A DNA stretch of 25,611 nucleotides, from the NCBI GenBank assembly GCA_031362565.1, contig JANLSU010000083.1:1-25611 (forward strand). The letters run 5' to 3'. Both the position numbers and the translations under genes were made by a program. Below the pieces are notes generated by a model. The model was not told the DNA's origin and ran no database searches. It worked only from the letters and a program-made list of their open reading frames with translations. Shown in pieces: positions 9,286 through 21,050 of this stretch. The stretch is from a bacterium (GTDB lineage Bacteria > Krumholzibacteriota > Krumholzibacteriia > G020349025). Each line of letters starts with the position of its first letter. Position 1 is the first letter of the stretch.

Positions 9286-10389
9286 TCAGCGGGCGAAGCC
9301 GTAGGCGCCCGCGTTCCGAAGCGCTGGTAACGACCGGCGCGGCAGAAGCACCGTTCGCACAGCCCAGAGTTCGGTGAAGATTCGATAGCGGGTCGTTTGA
9401 TCGAGATAGTCGACGCCGGCGGAGCCGCCGGTGCCCATGCGGCGGCCGATCGTGCGCTCGACCATGCGCGCGTGGCGGGTGCGCCAGAGCACGAGTTGTT
9501 CTTCGAGCTCGACGACCGTGTCGACGAGCAGGCGCGGCCAGGCGAGAAGCGGCAGCTCGCGGTAGGATTCAATGAAAAGGAGGCCAGCGCGGATGCGTTG
9601 GGCGCGCGGGCGGAGCGGCGCATCGACATCCTCGGCCAGCAGGAAGGCACGCGCGCCGGCCGCTGACTGGGCGACGCGGCACTGGACCGTTGAGCGATCG
9701 CCACCCTGCGTCTCGAGAACACGCTCGGCTTGCTCTGCTTGCAGGGCTTCGAGTGCCCGCAGATAGTCGTGGAGAAATGCCTCCACGGCCTGCGCGTCGC
9801 CTGGATCCTGCGGTCCCGAACCGTGAATGGGCGTGCGGTAGAGCCAGTCGTTGAGCGCGGCACGCAACGTCAGTTCTTGCCCGGCGGCGGCGATGCGCTC
9901 CATGGCCAGGTGACCACCGGGTGTCGCAGCCGCAAGCGTCTTCACTTGCTGCATGGCCGCGACCGCTTCAGTTGCGCGCTCGGCCTCTTCGAATCCCAGC
10001 AAGATCTCGATTTCCCGCATCTGGAACGACTGGAAGCCACTCGCCGGGGTCAATTTGTCGCGAAAGCCCAGGAAGTCCTGCGGCGTGAGCGTTTCCATGA
10101 CGCGAAACTGGTCGACCGCGAGCTTGAGGATCTCGTTGATGCGCCGCAAGTGGTGCACGACGTGCGGTACGGTCTCTTCCGCCACCCGTGGTGCGGCCAG
10201 GTGGTCGCGGGCCAGGCGCAGTTCGCGCAGGATGAGCTTGAACCATAGCTCGTAGACTTGGTGGACGACGATGAAGTGCAGTTCGTCAGGCATGAGCGAC
10301 GCATCGTCGTCCCCGAGTCCACTCTGCAGATCGAGAAGCCGGTCGAGCTTCAGGTAGTCCCAGTAGGTGGGAACTTGCGGCGCGGCCAT
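9286..10389 (-). CDS. kynA: Tryptophan 2,3-dioxygenase (long form, 367 aa)
   Basis: ATG 10389 after GGGAG. YWDYLKLDRLLDLQ, DELHFIVVHQVYELWFK, FRDKLTPASGFQSFQMREIE, WRTRHARMVERTIGRRMGTGGSAGVDYL (proximal His and GTGGS loop), FTELWAVRT. Confidence 0.96.
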   Translation of the reverse strand: MAAPQVPTYWDYLKLDRLLDLQSGLGDDDASLMPDELHFIVVHQVYELWFKLILRELRLARDHLAAPRVAEETVPHVVHHLRRINEILKLAVDQFRVMETLTPQDFLGFRDKLTPASGFQSFQMREIEILLGFEEAERATEAVAAMQQVKTLAAATPGGHLAMERIAAAGQELTLRAALNDWLYRTPIHGSGPQDPGDAQAVEAFLHDYLRALEALQAEQAERVLETQGGDRSTVQCRVAQSAAGARAFLLAEDVDAPLRPRAQRIRAGLLFIESYRELPLLAWPRLLVDTVVELEEQLVLWRTRHARMVERTIGRRMGTGGSAGVDYLDQTTRYRIFTELWAVRTVLLPRRSLPALRNAGAYGFAR

Positions 10390-10527
10390 GGGGGCTCCCG
10401 TTCGGTTCGTTCGTTCGAGCGGTGCAGTATCGCAGACCGGCGGGCGTGGCTCAAGCGCCCAAAGCATCGCCAATCGTGGTATTTTCCGGCGTTCGAGGCG
10501 CCCGGCAAGGGTTCGAGAGGAAAATGC

Positions 10528-11949
10528 ATGGCCCGCAAGATCATTCTCTTCGAACTGAACGAAGTTCCGAACCGAATCGTCGAGGAATACTGCCGCTGGC
10601 AGCCGGACTCGGCATTCGCCCGGCAACTCGCGGTGTGTTTACGCTACGAGACCGTCACCGAAGACATCGGCAACCTCTCGCCGTGGACGACCTGGCCGAG
10701 CTTGCATCGCGGCGTCAGCAATGCACAGCATCAGTTGTCGGACTTCGGCCAGAACACTGCCGAACTCGACACCGCCTACCCGCCGCTCTGGAGTCTCTTG
10801 GCGCGCCATGGCGTGCCGGTGGGGGTGTGCGGTTCCCTGCACACCTATCCGATGCCGGCGGACCTGACCAGCTACGCGTTCTATCTTCCGGACACCTTCG
10901 CGGCCGGCGCCGAGTGCTTCCCAGCCGTCCTCGAGTCATTCCAGGAATTCAACCTGATCATGGCGCGCGAGTCGGCGCGCAACGTCAGCACGCGGGTGCC
11001 GTGGGCCGCGGCGTTGCGTCTGCTCGCCAACATTCCTGGTCTCGGCATCAAGCCCGCGACGCTGCTCGACCTGGGACAGCAATTGATGGCCGAACGCGGC
11101 GCGCCGGAGCGCCGCGTGCGCCGCCGCACCTACCAGAGCGTTCTGGCGTTCGACGTCTTCATGCAACAACTGGCGCGCACCGAGCCGGCGTTCGCGACGT
11201 TCTTTACCAATCATGTCGCGTCATCCATGCACCGTTACTGGGCCGCCACTTTTCCCGGCGACTACGACACGATGGAGTTCACGCCCGAGTGGATCGCGAC
11301 CTACGGCGACGAGATCCGCTTCGCCATGGACAAGGCGAGCGCCATGATCGGGCGCGTGCTGCAATTCGCGGATCGTCATCCCGAGTACACGGTGTGGATC
11401 GCAACGAGCATGGGGCAGGAGGCAACGATCGCCCAACCGGTCGAGACCCAGCTCTACGTGACCGATCCCGGACGGCTCATGGCAGCGCTTGGATTCACGG
11501 CCGGCGAGTGGGAACCACGTCCTGCCATGCTGCCGCAGTTCAACGTCGTCGTCTCACCCGAGCGGCAGCACGCCTTCACTGACCGTTTATCGCAGCTCCG
11601 CATTGCGGGTGACCCACTGGTGTTTCGCGTTGCGGCGGCCGGCTTCGTGAGCCTCGACTTTGGCCACTACAACCTTGCACCCACGGCGCACGCCGAACTC
11701 GACGGCGACACCACGAGTTTCGCCGCCCTGGGTCTCTCGAATACCGAAATCCAAGACAAGTCCGGAACCTGCGCCTATCACATCCCGCAGGGCTGCTTGT
11801 TCATCTACGATCCGCGCGACAAAGCTGCGAAAACCGGGGCCACCCAGCAGGTGTCGACGCTCGACATCGCACCTACAATCCTGCAAAACTTCGGTGTTGC
11901 AGCGCCGGGTTTCATGCACCCCGCCGCGCGGCTCGGGGTCCCCGGTTGA
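10528..11949 (+). CDS. Alkaline phosphatase/sulfatase-superfamily protein with a non-canonical metal site, function unknown
   Basis: ATG 10528 after GAGAGG. KIILFELNEVP (first strand), LSPWTTWPSLHRG (nucleophile helix), HVASSMHRYW, YHIPQGCLF and C-terminal STLDIAPTIL, which is typical of the AlkP fold. Confidence 0.7.
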   Translation: MARKIILFELNEVPNRIVEEYCRWQPDSAFARQLAVCLRYETVTEDIGNLSPWTTWPSLHRGVSNAQHQLSDFGQNTAELDTAYPPLWSLLARHGVPVGVCGSLHTYPMPADLTSYAFYLPDTFAAGAECFPAVLESFQEFNLIMARESARNVSTRVPWAAALRLLANIPGLGIKPATLLDLGQQLMAERGAPERRVRRRTYQSVLAFDVFMQQLARTEPAFATFFTNHVASSMHRYWAATFPGDYDTMEFTPEWIATYGDEIRFAMDKASAMIGRVLQFADRHPEYTVWIATSMGQEATIAQPVETQLYVTDPGRLMAALGFTAGEWEPRPAMLPQFNVVVSPERQHAFTDRLSQLRIAGDPLVFRVAAAGFVSLDFGHYNLAPTAHAELDGDTTSFAALGLSNTEIQDKSGTCAYHIPQGCLFIYDPRDKAAKTGATQQVSTLDIAPTILQNFGVAAPGFMHPAARLGVPG

Positions 11950-11980
11950 CCGCTGGGGCTCGTTCCGATAAGGATGGCGC

Positions 11981-12790
11981 ATGTCGGTTTCAGAACCCTT
12001 GGGTGGGACACTTTCGCTTGCCGGGCGGCATGCCCTCGTCTGCGGCGCCTCGGCCGGGATCGGGCGCGCGTCGGCGCTCGCTCTCGCATCACTCGGTGCC
12101 CGCGTCACGGTGCTCGCGCGCCGGCGCGATGTACTGGAGGCGCTCCTGCCGGCATTGCGGACAGCCGGCGCGGCTTCGCCCGCGGCAGTCGCCGCCGATC
12201 TCGACGACCCCATGTCTTTCGAACCCGCGGTGCGGGCCCTCTTGGCAACCGGCGGGCCCGTCCACGTCTTAGTGAACAATTCGGGCGGTCCGGCACCGGG
12301 CGCCGTTCTCGCGTCTTCGTCCGAGCACTTCGCCGCGGGATTCGCGCGCGTTTTGTATTCGGCGCAGAGCCTGGTGCAACTGTGCCTGGCGGGAATGCGC
12401 GACGCAGGCTTCGGGCGCATCGTCAACGTGCTGTCGACGTCGGTGCGCGAGCCGATTCCAAATTTGGGCGTCGGCAACACGGTGCGCGGTGCGATGGCGG
12501 GCTGGGCGAAGACATTATCGCGTGAACTGCCCGCCGGAGTGACCATCAACAGCGTGCTGCCGGGCTACACCGCGACCGAGCGTCTGCAAGAACTGGCCGA
12601 GCTCACGGCCCGCAACACCGGCCGCACCGTCGCCGACATTCACGCCGACTGGACGCGCGAGATCCCGGAGGGGCGCCTCGCATCTCCGGATGAGATTGGC
12701 AACGTCATCGCTTTCCTGTGCTCACCGGCCGCCGCTTACGTCCGCGGCCAGAGCATCGCCGTGGATGGCGGCCGCATGCGCAGCATCTGA
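11981..12790 (+). CDS. SDR family oxidoreductase, atypical BKR-like subgroup
   Basis: CGASAGIG nucleotide-binding loop, LARR, LVNNSGGP, RIVNVLSTS, PGYTATER, VDGG. Canonical YxxxK is replaced by GNTVR. Confidence 0.9.
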   Translation: MSVSEPLGGTLSLAGRHALVCGASAGIGRASALALASLGARVTVLARRRDVLEALLPALRTAGAASPAAVAADLDDPMSFEPAVRALLATGGPVHVLVNNSGGPAPGAVLASSSEHFAAGFARVLYSAQSLVQLCLAGMRDAGFGRIVNVLSTSVREPIPNLGVGNTVRGAMAGWAKTLSRELPAGVTINSVLPGYTATERLQELAELTARNTGRTVADIHADWTREIPEGRLASPDEIGNVIAFLCSPAAAYVRGQSIAVDGGRMRSI

Positions 12791-12805: not shown

Positions 12806-14047
12806 GTGCACTTCGACATCTTCTTTTCGATCTCGCAGACGCCAGTCGGTGGCGTCGTCCCGTCCGAAGCCACCATGTTCGGCAATTTCTTCGATCAGGT
12901 GCAGGCAGCCGACGAGTTGGGCTTCGGCACCGCTTGGATCGCCGAGTCGCACTTATCGTCCGAGGTTCAGAAGCGCCACAAACAACCGGTGATTCCCCAC
13001 TGGCAGGGTGAAGTCGGTCTCAATGTCGATTTCCTGCAGTTGGCGCAGCACATCTTCCGCCGCACGCGCCGGATCGAAGCCGGCTCGGCCGTCATGAACA
13101 TCATTTGCAACGGTGGGCCGATCGCGCACGCCGAGCGTGTCGCGGCGTTTGCGGCCCTCCACGGGCTCGATCCCGCCGAGCACCGCCGCATTCATGTGGG
13201 ATTCGCCGCCGGCCGTTTCGAATTCATGAATCGGGCGGCCGGCATCGTGCCGCGTGACGCGGTCGAGGCGGCGGCGTGGCCAGCGCTCAAGGGCAAGGTT
13301 TTCACCGAAGCCGCTGAGATCTTCCTGAGCCTCCTGCGCGGCGATACTCTCGCGAGTGCGGACGTCACGCCGACACTGCTTACGCGAAGCGACTTTCGGA
13401 CGGACGAGGACTGGCAGCGTGTTCAGGGGGCGGCCGCGGAGACGCGCGGTGCAAGCGTCACAGATTCGGTCGAGATCGCACCGCGCTGGGTCTTCGAACC
13501 GCTCAAGATCGTGCCGCAAGAATGGCGGCGCGATGTCGTGCAACTGCTCATCGGCTCCCATGAACCGCGCCTGCAGGAGGCCGTCAACGCGATCCTGCCG
13601 GTGCAGGTGTTCAATCTCTCGATCACGCGGCCCGAGATCATCGAGGACACCCACACGCGGCTGGCGCGCGCCTATCACCCGAGTGGCGGGCCGTGGCAAC
13701 GCTCCTACATGCCGCGCACCGTGTTCGTTTTCCTGAATGAGCAGCCCGGATTGTCGGCCGAGCGACGGCGTGTCGCGGCGCAAGACGAGGCGCGAACTGC
13801 GCTCGGTGCCTACTGGACGGCACTCGAAGGCACGCTCGATCCTTCGAAGGTCAACAATGCGGCCGACAACGCTCTCATCGGCAACGCGGAAGACGTCGCG
13901 CAGCAAATGATCGAGCGCTTCCATCCCGAAGACCGGCTCATGCTGTGGTTCGACTTCTTCAACCATGACAGCGGGCGCGTGATCGCCAACATGGAAGCCT
14001 TCATGCGCGAGGTCGCGCCACGGGTCGAGCGAGCGGTGGGCGCATGA
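12806..14047 (+). CDS. LLM-class (bacterial luciferase-like) flavin-dependent monooxygenase
   Basis: GTG start after GAGGAGG. QVQAADELGFGTAWIAESH, RTRRIEAGSAV, PIAHAERVA, RIHVGFAAG, ALIGNAEDVAQQM and MEAFMREVAP follow the luciferase TIM-barrel pattern. Confidence 0.85.
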   Translation: MHFDIFFSISQTPVGGVVPSEATMFGNFFDQVQAADELGFGTAWIAESHLSSEVQKRHKQPVIPHWQGEVGLNVDFLQLAQHIFRRTRRIEAGSAVMNIICNGGPIAHAERVAAFAALHGLDPAEHRRIHVGFAAGRFEFMNRAAGIVPRDAVEAAAWPALKGKVFTEAAEIFLSLLRGDTLASADVTPTLLTRSDFRTDEDWQRVQGAAAETRGASVTDSVEIAPRWVFEPLKIVPQEWRRDVVQLLIGSHEPRLQEAVNAILPVQVFNLSITRPEIIEDTHTRLARAYHPSGGPWQRSYMPRTVFVFLNEQPGLSAERRRVAAQDEARTALGAYWTALEGTLDPSKVNNAADNALIGNAEDVAQQMIERFHPEDRLMLWFDFFNHDSGRVIANMEAFMREVAPRVERAVGA

Positions 14048-15216
14048 GTCCAAAACAAGACAAGGTACTGCCGAGCGCCGTTTCACCTGGGAAGCCCGGC
14101 AGTGACATCTACCCGCGCTCGCCGCTCGGCGAATCGGACCCGCGCATTCCGACCGGCCGCGACGTCGAATGGGTGCCGCTCGTCGACTACCGGCGGAACG
14201 GCGTCAGTGAGACGACGATTCATGGCGCGCTCGCTTGGGCGGCAGGCGACCGCGTGATGCATTCCTTCGGCGGCAATGTGCTCTGTTATGGCCGCAGCAT
14301 GATGAAGCCGCTCATGATGAAGGTGTTCACCTCGGCGCTCGACCCGGTGCTCGACTGGCGGCAGAAGGCGATCGCGGTCTCGAGCCACAATGGCAGCACC
14401 GAACACGTCGCAGCGGCGCAATCGCTCTTGCCGGAGAGCGAGTGGGGCTTGATGCAAACGCCGCTCGATGTGCCGCTCGTACAGTTCGGCCGCCAGGTGC
14501 GCCGGCCGCGCCGTTGGTATCACACCTGTTCCGGCGAGCACGCCGGCATCCTGCTCGGTTGCCGGCTGCGCGGCTGGAGCCGCGCCGGCTACACGCTCCC
14601 CCAGCATCCTTTCTTCCGCGGCTATCTCGAGCAGGTGCGCCGCCACCTGGGAGCGGATTGGGAGCCGTTGCGCATCGCTCGCGACGGCTGCGGATTGCCT
14701 ACGATCTCCAACACGGTCGGCGAATTGGCCGTGCTCTACGCGAGCTTGGCGCGCACCCACGACGAGGATTGGATCTGGGAGTCCATGGTGCGCTACCCCG
14801 ATCTCATCGGCGGTTTCAATCGCTTGGACAGCACCGTCATCAAAGCCTGCGGCGGCAGTGTTATCGCCAAAGAAGGCGCCGACGGGCTCTTGGGGCTCGC
14901 GATCCGGCATCCGGACTATCCACAAGGGCTGGGTGTCGTCATCAAGATCGCGCACGGATGGAATCCGCGCGCCACGTGGTACGTAGCTCGTGCCGTTCTG
15001 GGCGTGCTCGGATTCGAATTGCGCAATCCCTATGCCTTGCACCGGCAGAAGGCGTTCCTGGTGCCGGGCGTCGTGCCGCCTGGGCTCTTGCCCAAGATCG
15101 AAGCCATCCCGACGTGGGATGAATGGGATCCGGATCGCGACCGGTGGTACTACGACTTTCATCGCTATCCCGACGCCTTCGGCACCGACGATTCGGATGA
15201 CGGGAGAACGCCATGA
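14044..15216 (+). CDS. Asparaginase II (Rhizobium etli AnsA/class 3) family amidohydrolase with a variant active site
   Basis: ATGA overlap with the LLM gene. RSMMKP (Ser-Lys pair), SSHNG, TCSGEHAG (family motif NCSGKHAG), DGCGLP, AKEGADG, IKIAHG. Confidence 0.85.
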   Translation: MSPKQDKVLPSAVSPGKPGSDIYPRSPLGESDPRIPTGRDVEWVPLVDYRRNGVSETTIHGALAWAAGDRVMHSFGGNVLCYGRSMMKPLMMKVFTSALDPVLDWRQKAIAVSSHNGSTEHVAAAQSLLPESEWGLMQTPLDVPLVQFGRQVRRPRRWYHTCSGEHAGILLGCRLRGWSRAGYTLPQHPFFRGYLEQVRRHLGADWEPLRIARDGCGLPTISNTVGELAVLYASLARTHDEDWIWESMVRYPDLIGGFNRLDSTVIKACGGSVIAKEGADGLLGLAIRHPDYPQGLGVVIKIAHGWNPRATWYVARAVLGVLGFELRNPYALHRQKAFLVPGVVPPGLLPKIEAIPTWDEWDPDRDRWYYDFHRYPDAFGTDDSDDGRTP

Positions 15217-16667
15217 CACCGGCCGAACCCTCGGTCCTCGCGCAGTTCATTGGGGGACGCTTCGTGCCGCCCGCCGGCGGTGCGTATCTGGATGACATCG
15301 CACCGGCGACGGGAGCGGTCGTTGCGAGGGTGCCGCGCGGCGACGCGCGCGACGTCGAAGCGGCCGTCGCGGCCGCACGCGCCGCGTTCCCCGGCTGGTC
15401 GGGACGCTCCGTCGGCGAGCGCGCCGCCATTCTGGATGCGGTCGCGGCACGCATCGAGGCACGCGCCGATGAACTCGCGGCCTTGGAGTCGCTCGACACG
15501 GGCAAGCCGGTCCAACTGGCGCGCAGCGTCGACATTCCGCGCGCCGTGCTCAATTTTCGCTTTTTCGCAGGCGCCGTGCGCCACGACTCGACGGGCTGCC
15601 ATGAGATGCCCGGCGCGATCAACTACACGCTCCGCCGCCCCGTAGGAATCGCGGGCCTCGTGACACCGTGGAACCTGCCGCTCTACTTGTTGACGTGGAA
15701 AGCGGCACCAGCGCTCGCGCTCGGCAACACCGTGGTCGCCAAGCCGAGCGAGTTGACGCCGCTCACCGCCGCCGCACTCTGCGAAATCATGGCGGAGGCT
15801 GGCGTGCCGAACGGCGTCTTCAACTTGGTGCACGGGCTTGGCGGGGAGGCCGGGCAAGCGCTCGTCGAGCATCCGGACGTGCGCGCCATCTCATTCACCG
15901 GCGGTACCGCAACCGGGGCTCGCGTCGCTGCGACCGCAGCACCGCTCTTCAAGAAGCTATCGCTCGAACTGGGGGGTAAGAATCCGACCCTGGTGTTCGC
16001 GGACTGCGACTTCGAAGCGGCCGTCGAGGGGACGGTGCGCGCCGGATTTCAGAACCAAGGGCAAGTATGCCTCTGCGGCTCGCGGGTCCTGGTCGAGGCC
16101 TCGATCGCGGATCGATTCACCGCTGCCCTCCGTGACCGCGTCGGGGCGCTCCGGATCGGCGACCCAAGCGACCCGGCGACGCAGTTCGGCGCCCTCGTCT
16201 CGGCAGCGCATCGCGACAAGGTCGAGGGCTATCTGCAACTCGCACGCACTGAGGGTGGCACCGTGACCGGTGGCATCCGTCCGACGCTCGAGCCGCCCTT
16301 CGATGCCGGCGCATTCCTGTCGCCAGCGGTCGTCACCGGGCTCGGCCCCGACTGCCGCACCGCGCAGGAAGAAATCTTTGGGCCAGTCGTGACCGTGCAC
16401 CCATTTCGAGACGAGACGGAAGCGATCGCGATTGCGAACGGCGTGCGCTACGGACTCTCGGCATCGGTGTGGACGCGAAATCTGGGCCGCGCCCACCGCG
16501 TCGCGGCGGCCCTCGACACCGGTATGGTGTGGGTGAACACCTGGCTCTTGCGTGATTTGCGAGTGCCGTTCGGCGGCGTCAAGGCAAGCGGCGTCGGCCG
16601 CGAAGGCGGCGACTTCTCGCTCGAGTTCTTCAGCGAGTCCCGCAACGTGTGTATCAAGCTGGACTGA
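15213..16667 (+). CDS. amnC: Aldehyde dehydrogenase, 2-aminomuconate/2-hydroxymuconate-6-semialdehyde dehydrogenase (ALDH8/HMSD) type
   Basis: ATGA overlap. DIPRAVLNFRFF, PWNLPLYLLTWKAAPALA, KPSELTP, SFTGGT, SLELGGKNP, NQGQVCLCGSR, EEIFGPV, WLLRDLRVPFGGVKASGVGREGG. Genomic context of aminophenol dioxygenase and RidA. Confidence 0.85.
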   Translation: MTPAEPSVLAQFIGGRFVPPAGGAYLDDIAPATGAVVARVPRGDARDVEAAVAAARAAFPGWSGRSVGERAAILDAVAARIEARADELAALESLDTGKPVQLARSVDIPRAVLNFRFFAGAVRHDSTGCHEMPGAINYTLRRPVGIAGLVTPWNLPLYLLTWKAAPALALGNTVVAKPSELTPLTAAALCEIMAEAGVPNGVFNLVHGLGGEAGQALVEHPDVRAISFTGGTATGARVAATAAPLFKKLSLELGGKNPTLVFADCDFEAAVEGTVRAGFQNQGQVCLCGSRVLVEASIADRFTAALRDRVGALRIGDPSDPATQFGALVSAAHRDKVEGYLQLARTEGGTVTGGIRPTLEPPFDAGAFLSPAVVTGLGPDCRTAQEEIFGPVVTVHPFRDETEAIAIANGVRYGLSASVWTRNLGRAHRVAAALDTGMVWVNTWLLRDLRVPFGGVKASGVGREGGDFSLEFFSESRNVCIKLD

Positions 16668-16852: not shown

Positions 16853-17052
16853 GAAAGGGTCAATCAACCGTGTCTTTGTTCGTGACCGGGTTCCGCGGCT
16901 GCCGTGGAACGCCAGGGGATCCGCGCCACGTCCCAGAAGCTCTTTCGAAGCAATCCGGGGACCAAGCCCCGCATGCCGGTGTGCAGCTTCAAACGCTTGC
17001 GGCGTCATAGAGAAGTGAGGCCGTTTGATTCATCACCTTTGGGGGTACGGAC

Positions 17053-17856
17053 ATGAGATGGGCCCATATCGGCAGAACGATGGTGTTCGCCGTAACAGCA
17101 TTGGGACTCGCTGCCGCCGCGAGTGCAACGACGATTCCCAACAGCGCCGTTCTTCACACGCGAGTCTTCGACGATTGTCCGATTTCGATTCTTTCCACCA
17201 CGAACCTCTTTCCAAGCCTCATTGAAATCAACGACCAAAACCAACCGCCACAACCTCTTTGCGCCGGCTTCGCGAATCTTCATACTTGGCGATTCTCGAC
17301 CGACGGTGTCAACGCAGAGCAATTCGTGAACAGCGATGGCTTCCACTACAAGGCAACGCTCGTACTGAACGGCGGCGGTGAAGGTGGTCTGTCGATGGCG
17401 CCTTGGTACAGCCCGGACGCGGATGGCTTGTTCAGTGTCAGAACGACGGACGGCGAGATCGCTTGCTTCGGAGGTCGCATGCCGTTCTTCACGTTCACTG
17501 GAGCGTTTGGTCTCGTGTACGTGAACAACACTCCGATCACTCTCGGCATCGACTATGTGCCGCGCGGGCTTTCGGCGGTGTCCCCGGCGCAGGTCACCTA
17601 TACGGTTCGGTACAACAACGTCGACTACACGAGCGGGCCGCTCGACTTCGACCAGGGGAATGCAGCGGAGGATCCGCCGCACGGGCTCTGGGGAGCACTC
17701 AATCCATGGTACGCCGGTGGCCATGTCAAGGCGTTCCAATTCCCCGCCGGTCAACCCCATGGCATCGTCGCCGATTGGACCGACATCACCTTCGGAGATG
17801 GCGTTGTCTCCGTCGCGCCGAGCGACTGGGGCCGTGTGAAGGCATTGTATCGTTGA
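17053..17856 (+). CDS. Secreted hypothetical protein with C-terminal WGRVKALYR tail
   Basis: Signal-peptide-like N-terminus (R..R..MVFAVTALGLAAAASA); beta-rich mature region; ends VVSVAPSDWGRVKALYR; followed by an intrinsic terminator. Confidence 0.85.
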   Translation: MRWAHIGRTMVFAVTALGLAAAASATTIPNSAVLHTRVFDDCPISILSTTNLFPSLIEINDQNQPPQPLCAGFANLHTWRFSTDGVNAEQFVNSDGFHYKATLVLNGGGEGGLSMAPWYSPDADGLFSVRTTDGEIACFGGRMPFFTFTGAFGLVYVNNTPITLGIDYVPRGLSAVSPAQVTYTVRYNNVDYTSGPLDFDQGNAAEDPPHGLWGALNPWYAGGHVKAFQFPAGQPHGIVADWTDITFGDGVVSVAPSDWGRVKALYR

Positions 17857-17873
17857 TATGGAAGACCCGTTCC

Positions 17874-17911
17874 AAGGCCTCTTACTGCCGCCCGGTGGTA
17901 GGAGGCCTTTT
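17874..17911 (+). terminator. Rho-independent terminator
   Basis: 16-bp stem AAGGCCTCTTACTGCC / GGTGGTAGGAGGCCTT (fully paired when G-U is allowed), loop GCCC, short T run, 17 nt after the stop codon. Confidence 0.75.
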
Positions 17912-18067
17912 CGCATGCAGCACCAGGACATGGGGGGCGATGGGTCAGGGTTCTACGACGACAAGCCACTATGAGATGCGCGTGCTGCAAACGGGCCGGA
18001 GCCTGGCACATCCAGCGAATCTTTCGTAGACTCCCGGTTCCGAACGGGCACTACGAGGGAGGCTGGA

Positions 18068-18997
18068 ATGGGCGGCAAGGGACGTATCGTCGCGGGGTAT
18101 CTCGCGCCGCATCCGCCGCATCTTGTCTATGCCGAAAACCCGCCGCAGAACGAGCCGCGCTCGGAGTGCGGCTGGGAAGTTCTGCGCTGGGGGTACGAGC
18201 GTTGCCGCCAGAACCTGGCGACCAAGGACTTCGACGTCATCGTGGTGCATTCGCCGCACTGGCGCACCTTCGTCGGGCATCATTTTCTAGGTGTGCCCCA
18301 CTTTGAGAGCCTGTCAGTGGATCCTATTTTCCCGAATCTGTTTCGCTACCACTACAAGTGCGACGTCGACGTGCAGCTTGCGGAAGCGATCCACGATTCG
18401 GCGCGGGACGCGGGACTCGGCGTGCAGATGATGCGCAACCCGGACTTCCGGCTCGACTACGGCACCATTGCCGCGTGCCATCTGATTCACCCGGCTTGGG
18501 ACATCCCGATCGTCGGTATTTCTTCGAACGGCGCGCACTTCTACTACAGCAATGACGTGGGCCAGGCGCAGATGCAGGCGCTCGGGCAGGCGACGCGCAA
18601 AGCCATCGAAGCCACCGGGCGCAAGGCGTTGCTCTTGGCCAGCAACTCGCTCAGCCACCGGCATTTCACCAGTGAGCCCGAGACCCCCGAGGACATGTCG
18701 CACGAACGCATCTACCACCATGGACAGTACCTGTGGGACATGCATGTGCTGGATTTGATGCGCAAAGGCCAGACCCGGCAACTCTTCGATGAGCTCCCGG
18801 ACTTCATCGACCAGTCGGAAAGCGAAGCCAAGGCCGGGTGCCTGGCGTGGCTTTTGTCGGCCCTCGACTTCCCCACCTGGCCTGCCACCGTGCATGCGTA
18901 CGGCACCGTCATCGGAACCGGGAATGCGGTCGTCGAGTGGGACGTCGACGCGGCGATGGCACCAGCTGGGGCGACGCGTGCAGGAGGCAAACGATGA
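18068..18997 (+). CDS. amnB: 2-aminophenol 1,6-dioxygenase beta (catalytic) subunit, LigB-type extradiol dioxygenase
   Basis: AGYLAPHPPHLVYAENPPQNEPRS, VHSPHW, VGHHFLG, SVDPIFPN, MMRNPDFRLDYGTI, LLASNSLSH, PEDMS, SEAKAG and YGTVIGTGNAV match AmnB/CnbCb as I recall them, including the His/His/Glu iron ligands and catalytic Tyr/His. Confidence 0.93.
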   Translation: MGGKGRIVAGYLAPHPPHLVYAENPPQNEPRSECGWEVLRWGYERCRQNLATKDFDVIVVHSPHWRTFVGHHFLGVPHFESLSVDPIFPNLFRYHYKCDVDVQLAEAIHDSARDAGLGVQMMRNPDFRLDYGTIAACHLIHPAWDIPIVGISSNGAHFYYSNDVGQAQMQALGQATRKAIEATGRKALLLASNSLSHRHFTSEPETPEDMSHERIYHHGQYLWDMHVLDLMRKGQTRQLFDELPDFIDQSESEAKAGCLAWLLSALDFPTWPATVHAYGTVIGTGNAVVEWDVDAAMAPAGATRAGGKR

Positions 18998-20412
18998 CGG
19001 CGGGGACAGGCCACGTCATTCGCGGCTACATCGTACCGGGCATGCCGCAGCCGCTGTTGGTGCCGGATCAGTCGCCGGGATGGCGTTCGCTCCGTGACTC
19101 GTTCGAGCGCGTGCGGCAGGAGATCGAGGCCTCGGATGCCGACCTCTTGCTTCTCTACAGCACGCAATGGACCAGCATCATCGGCCATCAGATCCAAGCC
19201 GACCCTGAGCCCGAATGGGTGCATGTCGATCCCGAGTGGCATGCGCTCGGCTCGATGCCGTACCGGTTCCGCATGGACGCCGAGTTCGGTGCGGCCTACG
19301 AAGCCGCGGCGCGCGCCCGCGGCCTGCAAGCGCGTACCGTCGCATACCACGGCTTCCCGATCGACACCGGCACCGTCGTCGCGCTGCAGCTCCTGAACCC
19401 GGGCAATCGCCGCGCTGCGAGCGTCGTGTCGTGCAACATGTACGCGGACCGGGGCGAAACGCTCGTCCTCGGCAAGGCGGCCGCGGATGCCGTGCAGGCC
19501 ACCGGACGCAAATGCATCGCCATCGCGGTGACGCTGCTCTCGAATCGCCTCTTCACGGAAGCCATCGATCCTGCCAAGGACCACATCGCATCTCTCAAGG
19601 ACGACGAGTGGAATCGCAAGATTCTCGAGATTCTGGGTGAAGGCCGCTTGGAGGACGTGTCGCAACTGGCGCGTGAATTCACCGCCCAAGCCAACGCCGA
19701 TCAGAAGATGAAAGCACTCTGGTGGCTGGCGGCGACCATGGGACAACACAACCGTTACGACGGGCAGGTCTTCGACTACCAGCCGGTGTGGGGCACGGGT
19801 GCTGCACTCGTTGGTCTCGTGCCGACGGGCCGCGCCGCCGCCGATCAAGAGTTCGACGAGGAAAGCGTCGATGTGTATCGCGGCGATCGCAATGTGCTGT
19901 CGGCGGCGGATGCCGCAACAGAGAGCGAATCCACAACCGGCGCTGGGACTGCGGCCGTGCCTGCGGTGCCGGTCACAGCGCCAACGGGCGCGATCCGGGT
20001 CGATTCCGCACCGCGGCCCGTGGGCGCCTATGCGCACGCACGCCGCGTCGGCGATCTGCTCTTCCTCGCCGGCATCGGCCCCCGCCGGGCGAGCGACGAC
20101 GCCATTCCCGGCGGCCCGGTGCGCGACGCCGGTGGCGCGCCCCTCGACTACGATATCGAAGCGCAAACCCGCGCGTGCATCGCCAACGTGCAGCACGTCC
20201 TCGAAAAAGCCGGTTCGTCGCTCGATCAGGTCTTCGACGTCACGGCGTACCTCATCGATATGGAGCGGGATTTCCCGGTGTTCAATCGCGTCTACGCGGA
20301 GTACTTCCCAAATGCCAGCGCGACCCGGACCACCGTTGCGGTCTCCGCGCTGCCGACCCCGATCGCCGTCGAGCTCAAGGTGATTGCGGCGGCGGGAAAG
20401 ACATCCACATGA
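18994..20412 (+). CDS. amnA: Fusion: 2-aminophenol 1,6-dioxygenase alpha subunit + RidA-family 2-aminomuconate deaminase-like domain
   Basis: ATG 18994 (ATGA overlap, AGGAGG RBS). N-domain VPGMPQP, LYSTQW, VHVDPEW, YHGFPIDTGT, DDEWNRKIL (AmnA/CnbCa). Acidic then Ala/Thr/Pro linker at about 19826-19990. C-domain PVGAYAHARRVGDLLFLAG, QTRACIANV, DMERDFPVFNRVYAEYF, TRTTV (catalytic Arg), VELKVIA. No in-frame stop between the domains. Confidence 0.9.
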   Translation: MTAGTGHVIRGYIVPGMPQPLLVPDQSPGWRSLRDSFERVRQEIEASDADLLLLYSTQWTSIIGHQIQADPEPEWVHVDPEWHALGSMPYRFRMDAEFGAAYEAAARARGLQARTVAYHGFPIDTGTVVALQLLNPGNRRAASVVSCNMYADRGETLVLGKAAADAVQATGRKCIAIAVTLLSNRLFTEAIDPAKDHIASLKDDEWNRKILEILGEGRLEDVSQLAREFTAQANADQKMKALWWLAATMGQHNRYDGQVFDYQPVWGTGAALVGLVPTGRAAADQEFDEESVDVYRGDRNVLSAADAATESESTTGAGTAAVPAVPVTAPTGAIRVDSAPRPVGAYAHARRVGDLLFLAGIGPRRASDDAIPGGPVRDAGGAPLDYDIEAQTRACIANVQHVLEKAGSSLDQVFDVTAYLIDMERDFPVFNRVYAEYFPNASATRTTVAVSALPTPIAVELKVIAAAGKTST

Positions 20413-21050
20413 CGCGGCTCATCGATATTTCGCCGCTCATTTCTGACCGCATCGGCGTCTTCCCAGGCGACGTGCCGTACCGGCGTGACGTCAGCCTGCG
20501 GATCGCGGATGGCGCCAATATCGATCTCTCAGCGCTGCATTCGACACTGCATGTTGGAGCGCACGCCGACGCACCGAATCACTACATTGCCGGCGGAGCG
20601 CCGATTGCCGCCCGGCCGCTCGACCTCTACTACGGCCCGTGTCAGGTGGTCCGGGTCCAGGCGGCGCGTGGAGTACGCATCCAACCCGGCGACCTCGGCG
20701 TCGAGATTGAAGCGCCGCGCGTCCTCTTCCAGACCGCGACGTTTCCGGACCCGAACACCTTCAACGAAGACTTCGCCAGCCTCTCGCCGGCGCTCATCGA
20801 CTGGCTCGCGGAGCGCGGGGTGCGTCTGGTCGGCATCGATACGCCGTCCATCGATCCATGTCACGATCCGGTCCTGGAGAGCCACCAGGCGGTTGCACGG
20901 CACGATATGGCGATCCTGGAAGGTCTTGTCCTCGCGCACGTCGATCCAGGTCTGTACACGCTCGTCGCCCTCCCGCTGCGTTTGGAAGGCGCCGATGCCT
21001 CACCCGTCCGTGCAGCGCTCATCGCGGCCAGCAGCGTTTTTCCCGCCTGA
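20409..21050 (+). CDS. kynB: Kynurenine formamidase (cyclase family)
   Basis: ATG 20409 (ATGA overlap). LIDISP, FPGD, HVGAHADAPNH (HxGxHxDxPxH metal motif), LVGIDTPSIDP, ILEGL, LPLRLEGADASPVRA. kynA is in the same cluster. Confidence 0.92.
   Translation: MTRLIDISPLISDRIGVFPGDVPYRRDVSLRIADGANIDLSALHSTLHVGAHADAPNHYIAGGAPIAARPLDLYYGPCQVVRVQAARGVRIQPGDLGVEIEAPRVLFQTATFPDPNTFNEDFASLSPALIDWLAERGVRLVGIDTPSIDPCHDPVLESHQAVARHDMAILEGLVLAHVDPGLYTLVALPLRLEGADASPVRAALIAASSVFPA

Follow-up and report, generated by a model that had tools for sequence, protein, structure and literature searches.

What does a gene annotated as L-asparaginase II do in the middle of an operon whose other members make kynurenine and consume 2-aminophenol? 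This question is raised by a 25,611-nucleotide stretch of contig JANLSU010000083.1 (assembly GCA_031362565.1, Krumholzibacteriota), called the window in the following, in which positions 14044..15216 of the + strand encode a 390-residue hydrolase of the class 3 asparaginase fold with an ATG start (PF06089, Asparaginase_II; hereafter AsnII). On the same strand, the gene is preceded by the genes of a short-chain dehydrogenase/reductase (SDR) and a luciferase-like flavin monooxygenase (LLM) and followed by those of an aldehyde dehydrogenase (ALDH), AmnB, an AmnA-AmnD fusion and KynB, and a tryptophan 2,3-dioxygenase (TDO) is encoded upstream on the - strand. ATGA overlaps of stop and start codons connect LLM with AsnII (14044-14047) and AsnII with ALDH (15213-15216), and the same type of overlap also joins AmnB, AmnA-AmnD and KynB; the gene is translationally coupled within the operon. 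The cluster combines kynurenine makers (TDO, KynB) with 2-aminophenol consumers (AmnBA, ALDH and a RidA-type domain), and LLM and AsnII are placed in between. We propose a tryptophan route without the need for kynureninase, in which AsnII is the Ser-Lys hydrolase, and we consider the chances slightly better than even that kynurenine undergoes Baeyer-Villiger oxygenation by LLM and that AsnII hydrolyses the resulting beta-aspartyl 2-aminophenyl ester or anilide to aspartate and 2-aminophenol.

By profile match and fold, the protein belongs to PF06089. The open reading frame (ORF) product matches the profile with 164 bits over residues 47-327 (E 5.7e-48, cut-off 25), and ReAIV (8cly, E 1.7e-15) and ReAV (7os3, E 2.6e-15) from Rhizobium etli were the only solved relatives found by sequence among PDB entries using phmmer. 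An AlphaFold2 model based on a 94-sequence alignment has a mean pLDDT of 92.3, and its top 41 Foldseek matches are ReAV and ReAIV structures (E about 1e-18, best 4e-19, TM 0.63-0.74, 21-25% identity), followed by glutaminases and beta-lactamases with E about 2e-3. Re-reading of the DNA at 14521..14541 on the + strand (cac acc tgt tcc ggc gag cac) gave the motif H160-T161-C162-S163-G164-E165-H166 described in the initial annotation, with Glu165 as counterpart of the zinc-ligand Lys138 of ReAV. In the phmmer alignments to ReAIV and ReAV, HTCSGEH is placed on NCSGKH, RSMMK on RSxxK, SSHNG on SHNG, DGCGLP on DGCxxP and AKEGADG on K-x-GA(D/E), which is the Lys263 segment, and the numbering given earlier for the retained S85/K88, S114, C216 and K276 is correct. 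In detail, ReAV Arg47, Ser48-Lys51, Ser80-Lys263, His139, Tyr156 and Asp187 correspond to Arg84, Ser85-Lys88, Ser114-Lys276, His166, Tyr183 and Asp214, and the zinc site Cys135/Lys138/Cys189 corresponds to C162/E165/C216, so that the exchange of the zinc-ligand Lys for Glu165 is the sole change within the ReAV active-site set. The acidic and aromatic C-terminal tail TWDEWDPDRDRWYYDF (residues 357-372; 15112..15159, + strand), which had also been pointed out before, is modelled with a pLDDT of 75-88 and conserved in orthologues: of 78 orthologous reading frames, 72 share its WD(E/D)WD core (two of 80 loci yielded no frame by the criterion used), and the tail is missing from shorter relatives.

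What substrate would be expected for such an enzyme? According to PMC11024299, the zinc of ReAV is bound by Cys135, Lys138, Cys189 and a water, with a conservation in the family of 99% for Ser48, Lys51, Ser80, Cys135, Cys189 and Lys263 and of 97% for Lys138. Ser48 is described as nucleophile, Lys51 as base and Arg47 as the residue holding the alpha-carboxylate (PMC12292245), and the metal as having no direct catalytic part and anchoring L-Asn via its alpha-amino and alpha-carboxy groups (PMC12951835). Because the residues are kept, an L-amino acid with a C-gamma carbonyl, i.e., a beta-aspartyl-X compound, is the expected substrate. The acyl-enzyme mechanism is probably shared with ReAV and ReAIV: Ser85 would form the acyl-enzyme on the beta-aspartyl carbonyl, and the group that leaves would be an aryl one. 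With the asparaginase machinery kept in full, the enzyme would be expected to act on a substrate such as an N4-substituted asparagine or its ester counterpart.

To find out how closely AsnII is associated with its neighbours, we compared related loci. A word-index search retrieved 1632 homologues, and the best 120 (75-87% identity) originate, where labelled, from Planctomycetota, Myxococcota, Latescibacterota and Alphaproteobacteria. Restricted to one genome per species, 546 stretches with a relative were obtained, and the best 80 of these (68-83% identity; the 80 loci in the following) come from Marine Group II and other Thermoplasmatota-type archaea (34), Bdellovibrionota (20), Planctomycetota (12), Myxococcota (2) and Holophagae (1), together with entries labelled Pseudomonadota (6) and Streptomyces (1) and four unlabelled ones. 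Using tblastn with the window proteins we detected LLM in 69, ALDH in 75, AmnB in 57, AmnA/RidA in 56, SDR in 55, and TDO and KynB in 19 each of the 80 loci, many of which are cut by contig ends. None of the remaining window genes was detected by tblastn in these loci, and no further conserved cluster genes beyond the window set were found there. AsnII is the most conserved member of the operon, with a median identity of 72.5% compared to 49-64% for the neighbours, and this conservation spans Bacteria and Archaea. In a sample of 201 genomes from the own phylum, which served as control, LLM, ALDH, AmnB and AmnA accompany all 8 orthologue loci and none of 9 canonical PF06089 loci (3.9-18 kb per locus, three below 10 kb). 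Both counts bear out a tie of the clade to kynurenine and aminophenol (kyn/amn) neighbourhoods, which the initial annotation had proposed to check.

It could be argued that AsnII is nevertheless an ordinary L-asparaginase, or a hydrolase of small amides or formamides, that is merely co-located with the pathway, for example for aspartate/ammonia balance or as a back-up of KynB. The fully kept ReAV catalytic residues would be compatible with this, and the K138A variant of ReAV still retains some activity (kcat 4.8 instead of 416 s-1; PMC11024299). However, the own genome contains a second PF06089 copy of canonical type on another contig, scoring 278 bits against the profile versus 164 for the window protein; the gene of interest co-occurs with KynB and is in some cases even fused to it, hence it is no KynB substitute, and neither its conservation across two domains nor the missing context of the canonical copies speaks for a routine asparaginase. 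We therefore regard this explanation as very unlikely. Since the protein lacks the zinc-ligand Lys of ReAV and is placed outside the clade of N-C-S-G-K-H asparaginases (see below), it should, judged by its sequence, not be filed as L-asparaginase. The second copy (G000 contig C8:6470-7480, L081) has Asn in place of the zinc-ligand Lys (N-N-C-S-G-N-H ... D-D-C), and no pathway genes were found on its 9.7-kb contig.

The phylogenetic position was analyzed with IQ-TREE (LG+G4, quick search, support by the Shimodaira-Hasegawa-like approximate likelihood ratio test (SH-aLRT) only, with long-branch warnings). Context-linked sequences lie on one side of a branch with a support of 98-99 and the ReAV-type rows on the other, in agreement with the distinct subfamily postulated in the initial annotation. 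At the level of single residues, we compared a context-linked set of 106 sequences, consisting of orthologues and context-linked relatives, with a canonical set of 22 sequences, from which 7 of the 9 control loci had been dropped due to fewer than 250 aligned residues. The intact hydrolytic core claimed there is also confirmed, as R84, S85, K88, S114, H166, Y183, D214 and K276 are invariant in 106/106 context-linked sequences. Both sets are separated at I59, M86/M87, W158, F191, E277 and W306: position 59 is His in 22/22 and position 191 Gln in 20/22 canonical sequences, M86 and M87 sit inside the Ser-x-x-Lys turn, and E277, which adjoins the catalytic Lys, is Glu in 105/106 context-linked sequences. 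In the main, the context-linked sequences have acquired bulky or aromatic side chains next to the catalytic motifs (M86, M87, W158, F191 in place of Gln, W306); the separating residues may line the leaving-group pocket. Compared to ReAV and ReAIV (7os3, 8cly, 9g66), AsnII shares the fold, the Arg, both Ser-Lys tandems, the His, Tyr and Asp and the two Cys, but it differs at these positions and in the Glu for the zinc-ligand Lys, carries N- and C-terminal extensions, belongs to a separate clade (SH-aLRT 99) and is part of a TDO/KynB/LLM/Amn operon that the canonical copies lack.

Does the exchange of Lys to Glu itself mark the new function? The motif is not a product of chance, because C-S-G-E-H is kept in 59 of the 80 loci, all with a Cys/Glu/Cys site (H-[T/C/G]-C-S-G-E-H ... 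D-G-C), and 122 homologues out of the first 125 in store have it as well. Nevertheless, the interpretation that Lys to Glu together with Asn to Thr re-tunes the pocket was not supported, and on the sequences compared here the Glu is not the marker of the job of this enzyme. The other 21 loci have the same operon with Ser/His/Asp or Ser/Gln/Asp and Asn at position 161 (N-N-S-S-G-[H/Q]-H ... D-G-D); these orthologues are mostly from Pseudobdellovibrionaceae. Relatives keeping the Lys (C-F-S-K-H, P-C-S-G-K-H) are fused to kynurenine formamidase and located beside LLM and TDO. In five Bdellovibrionota loci a relative at 30-34% identity keeps the Lys (H-x-C-F-[S/P]-K-H), with a kynurenine-formamidase domain directly downstream in 5/5; LLM is nearby in 3/5 and TDO in 4/5. 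Furthermore, the ReAV zinc holds the alpha-amino and alpha-carboxy groups and not the leaving group, as stated in PMC12951835, and for this reason the changed residue belongs to the anchor of the amino-acid end and not to the leaving-group side.

In the trees, the Cys/Glu/Cys group of the window is a clade of 21 rows with a support of 99; Glu is found on several other branches as well. Glu165 as a clade marker was rejected, as the trees require at least 4-5 changes for Glu. In the 106 context-linked sequences, ligand positions 1 and 3 covary without exception (C...C 74, S...D 32, mixed 0), and what stands between them depends on the pair: Glu (66) or Lys (8) where it is Cys/Cys, His (26), Gln (5) or Leu (1) where it is Ser/Asp; Cys/Lys/Cys is present in 21/22 canonical sequences. 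Because of this covariation, and because the Cys/Glu/Cys clade is nested among Ser/His/Asp sequences, the three ligands have apparently changed together, and on more than one occasion. The Ser/His(Gln)/Asp type comprises L027, L035, L039, L044 and 17 more of L001-L080, and is also found in L103 and L107-L111.

How could the pair of LLM and AsnII connect kynurenine with 2-aminophenol? An aryl beta-aspartyl substrate, as suggested by the initial annotation, is the most economical guess from a clade tied to kyn/amn genes. Kynurenine is an aryl ketone and formally a C-linked beta-aspartyl-aniline, and a Baeyer-Villiger reaction with aryl migration would be the simplest chemistry leading to 2-aminophenol. 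TDO and KynB would provide L-kynurenine, and LLM would place an oxygen atom between the ring and the carbonyl carbon of the ketone, yielding the beta-(2-aminophenyl) ester of L-aspartate. By an O-to-N acyl shift, which general chemistry leads us to expect to occur readily, this ester could rearrange to N4-(2-hydroxyphenyl)-L-asparagine. In AsnII, Arg84 and the metal site would bind the alpha-amino-acid end and Ser85 would attack the C-gamma carbonyl, as in ReAV with asparagine. The products would be 2-aminophenol and L-aspartate, and AmnBA, ALDH and the RidA domain would then open the ring and deaminate. It is also possible that LLM acts on N-formylkynurenine and that KynB deformylates afterwards; fusions of AsnII and KynB would in this variant combine consecutive steps. 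Family, fold, kept catalytic residues, operon conservation, domain fusions and the lack of kynureninase in most carriers are observed; the Baeyer-Villiger step, the substrate, the products and the functions of both enzymes we infer from gene context, domain fusions and kept residues.

The lower part of the route resembles the amn cluster of Pseudomonas sp. AP-3 and the cnb cluster of Comamonas CNB-1 (3vsg, 7txy, 8ihg, 6izh), with a strongly similar two-subunit, LigB-type 2-aminophenol 1,6-dioxygenase (AmnB, AmnA), AmnC-type ALDH and RidA-type deaminase, but with AmnA and AmnD fused in the window. The known clusters are fed by aminophenols derived from nitrobenzene or chloronitrobenzene, and to our knowledge they do not contain a TDO, KynB, LLM or PF06089 gene. 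For the upper part, the proposed pair follows the same two-step logic as 4-hydroxyacetophenone monooxygenase HapE and esterase HapD of Pseudomonas fluorescens ACB, which convert an aryl ketone via an aryl ester to a phenol and an acid. HapE is a type I (FAD/NADPH) Baeyer-Villiger monooxygenase and HapD an esterase unrelated to the asparaginase-fold hydrolase, whereas here a very divergent LLM oxygenase and an asparaginase-fold hydrolase would do the work. The luciferase-like barrel of LLM is shared with 3,6-diketocamphane monooxygenase (5aec), a type II Baeyer-Villiger monooxygenase. Compared to kynureninase (KynU, TIGR01814), the pair would occupy the same place in the pathway, the removal of the kynurenine side chain; kynureninase, however, performs a pyridoxal phosphate-dependent C-C cleavage to anthranilate and alanine, while the proposed pair would depend on O2 and on reduced flavin, with 2-aminophenol and aspartate as products. 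From the kynA-kynB-kynU pathway, TDO and formamidase are present in the window and kynureninase was not found in the own genome. No literature link of kynurenine with a luciferase-like or Baeyer-Villiger oxygenase, with asparaginase II or with 2-aminophenol as a pathway was found, with subscription journals outside the coverage of the search.

Additional evidence for a link between the pair and kynurenine formation comes from fusions and minimal gene sets. In the metagenome locus L085, the four genes TDO-LLM-AsnII-KynB form a compact operon whose stops overlap; amn genes are missing, and the hydrolase of this locus (P0125, 309 residues, Glu-type, 48% identity) is devoid of the N- and C-terminal extensions. 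Single proteins combining PF06089 and PF04199, i.e., AsnII and KynB, were identified by Pfam in L115 (8585-10117, - strand, 511 residues) and L112 (9614-11176, + strand, 521 residues) and are also represented by P0131, P0239 and P0248; they have about 500-530 residues and adjoin LLM and TDO. This is relevant for the alternative that the cluster degrades another aminoaromatic compound and not tryptophan, with LLM and AsnII acting on an unrelated amide or ester and TDO and KynB as mere neighbours. Such a reading could refer to the fact that TDO and KynB are each present in just 19 of the 80 loci, but contig ends cut many of these, TDO is encoded in 10/11 orthologue-bearing genomes of the own-phylum sample and both TDO and KynB in 5/5 Bdellovibrionota genomes tested, and both the four-gene operon of L085 and the AsnII-KynB fusions connect the pair directly with the step that yields kynurenine. 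We consider it quite unlikely.

Another order of events would retain the gene set and the beta-aspartyl-enzyme logic: LLM could 3-hydroxylate kynurenine, AmnBA could open the ring of 3-hydroxykynurenine, and AsnII could release aspartate and 2-aminomuconate semialdehyde by a retro-Claisen C-C hydrolysis. The position of AsnII between AmnA and RidA in Bdellovibrionota loci would fit, as would P0277, P0278 and P0279 (719-736 residues), putative fusions of an N-terminal LigB (AmnA-like) domain and a C-terminal PF06089 domain, the latter 73-75% identical to AsnII of the window; they are either true fusions or merged gene calls. Together with the AmnA-AmnD fusion of the window, these proteins may add further links within the gene set. 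However, in L085 and L115 the TDO-LLM-AsnII-KynB module has no amn genes in its vicinity, and no AmnB (E<=1e-10) was found in 3/5 Bdellovibrionota genomes with TDO, KynB, LLM and AsnII, one of which is essentially a single contig (2.17 Mb of 2.2 Mb). This suggests that the hydrolase acts before and not after ring cleavage. In addition, AmnB closely resembles genuine 2-aminophenol dioxygenases, luciferase-like monooxygenases do not usually hydroxylate aromatic rings, and we know of no C-C hydrolysis in the class 3 asparaginase fold. Hydrolysis after ring cleavage is thus unlikely in our view.

Modules without amn genes (L085, L103, L115) would also suit a Baeyer-Villiger reaction with alkyl migration, in which LLM forms O-anthraniloyl-L-serine and the hydrolase releases anthranilate and serine, as a bypass of kynureninase without 2-aminophenol. 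General chemistry favours migration of the electron-rich aryl group over that of a primary alkyl group, and the scissile carbonyl would be one atom further from C-alpha than in asparagine, although the positions of nucleophile, base, Arg and metal anchor are unchanged. Moreover, most loci encode 2-aminophenol dioxygenases and not anthranilate-degrading enzymes, and we regard this possibility as highly improbable.

Genome profiling was based on samples of 201 + 201 genomes and 35 genome handles. Kynureninase (TIGR01814) has 0 matches in the own genome (100% complete, 1.85% contamination), and none of 30 other cluster-bearing genomes scores above cut-off (best score 48 bits). In the own-phylum sample, 9/11 orthologue-bearing genomes are without kynureninase. 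Across this sample, kynureninase is present in 32 genomes, a PF03301-type TDO in 29 and both in only 2. The search for PF06052 (3-hydroxyanthranilate dioxygenase) gave 0 matches in the own genome, which is uninformative as the control was also at 0 in every genome, and the two matches of an Amidohydro_2 search are uninformative on 2-amino-3-carboxymuconate semialdehyde decarboxylase.

Several points weigh against the proposed route. The carriers G097 and G243 contain a kynureninase above cut-off and G129 a partial match of 228 bits, and the counts rest on genomes including metagenome-assembled ones, mostly without a completeness figure. Nineteen other TDO-bearing genomes of the own phylum are without both kynureninase and the cluster, and for this reason the missing kynureninase is a weak argument alone. 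The Baeyer-Villiger chemistry is postulated because a way from kynurenine to 2-aminophenol is required, and the fold of LLM is compatible with it without being discriminating: its AlphaFold2 model (pLDDT 92.2) shows a luciferase-like TIM barrel, and the Foldseek matches are generic, including luciferases, RutA, RslO1 and F420 enzymes, with 3,6-diketocamphane monooxygenase at rank 36 (E 6.3e-10). No conserved flavin reductase was found in the cluster among the 80 loci. Finally, the separating residues are candidates for pocket lining at the level of sequence. A complex prediction of LLM and AsnII, both supplied as alignments, gave a score of 0.00, from which no verdict was drawn.

If the route is true, it would represent a third logic of aerobic tryptophan catabolism beside the kynureninase/anthranilate and the 3-hydroxyanthranilate routes, operating in predatory bacteria and in archaea that count among the most numerous heterotrophs of their domain in ocean surface waters. 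The route would also provide a natural substrate source for 2-aminophenol dioxygenases, which are known mainly from pollutant degraders, and thousands of 'L-asparaginase II' genes would have to be re-annotated. In a broader version, for which we see an even chance, a large part of PF06089 is not asparaginase and forms together with LLM an oxygen-dependent replacement of kynureninase in Marine Group II archaea, Planctomycetota, Bdellovibrionota and Myxococcota, which turns kynurenine into aspartate and 2-aminophenol; the metal site that anchors the substrate would have been exchanged as a whole among Cys/Glu/Cys, Cys/Lys/Cys and Ser/His/Asp, the last probably without metal. Such a natural series of variants would help to clarify what zinc does in class 3 asparaginases, a question that has yet to be settled.

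The remaining genes of the operon are as follows. The proposed kynurenine Baeyer-Villiger oxygenase LLM (12806..14047, + strand, 413 residues) is a very divergent family member with 31 bits to PF00296 and no match by sequence among PDB entries. The atypical SDR (11981..12790, + strand; profile match), always paired with LLM, keeps the GASxGIG nucleotide-binding motif and shows, aligned by eye, S-N-T-x-R-G-A-M-A-x-W-x-K in place of the classical N-Y-x-x-x-K. The catalytic Tyr and Lys of YxxxK appear to be replaced, and the protein might serve LLM as flavin reductase or act as enoyl reductase in the lower pathway. A minus-strand ORF at 11587-12549, seemingly conserved in 51 loci, was rejected as it is the antisense of SDR. 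Downstream of AsnII, the AmnC-like 2-amino/2-hydroxymuconate semialdehyde dehydrogenase (15213..16667, + strand) matches PF00171 with 560 bits, and the nearest profile, TIGR03216 for 2-hydroxymuconate semialdehyde dehydrogenase, with 596.7 bits, below its cut-off of 693. The AmnB-like beta subunit of 2-aminophenol 1,6-dioxygenase (18068..18997, + strand) matches 3vsg_B (E 2.4e-119) and 8ihg_A (E 2.1e-113). It is followed by the AmnA-like alpha subunit fused to an AmnD-like, RidA-type 2-aminomuconate deaminase (18994..20412, + strand; 7txy_A, E 3.5e-54; 6izh_A, E 1.1e-24), one open frame whose ATG at 18994 overlaps the AmnB stop. A single AmnA-AmnD frame is also present in many Planctomycetota loci, and separate genes are found in Bdellovibrionota and most archaeal loci. 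The kynurenine (aryl)formamidase KynB (20409..21050, + strand; PF04199), with its ATG at 20409 overlapping the preceding stop, scores 202 bits against TIGR03035 (cut-off 223), and TDO (9286..10626, - strand) 209 bits against PF03301; the coordinates of the latter are those of the longest ORF, and the true start is probably at 10389 or 10467.

For the lower pathway, no AmnE, AmnF, AmnG or AmnH was found among the Pfam matches of the window, and the related locus L112 holds two FAA_hydrolase genes. The operon is interrupted by ORFs at about 10530-11949 (+ strand), between TDO and SDR, and at 17005-17931 (- strand), between ALDH and AmnB, which have no Pfam or NCBIfam match and are absent from all 80 related loci; the G+C content of the second stretch is 0.57-0.62 compared to about 0.65. 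Eleven archaeal loci have an amino-acid permease and a class II aminoacyl-tRNA synthetase in common, and the permease, which follows the cluster and carries a C-terminal EF-hand pair (e.g., L016:13495-15165), is a possible importer of tryptophan or kynurenine.

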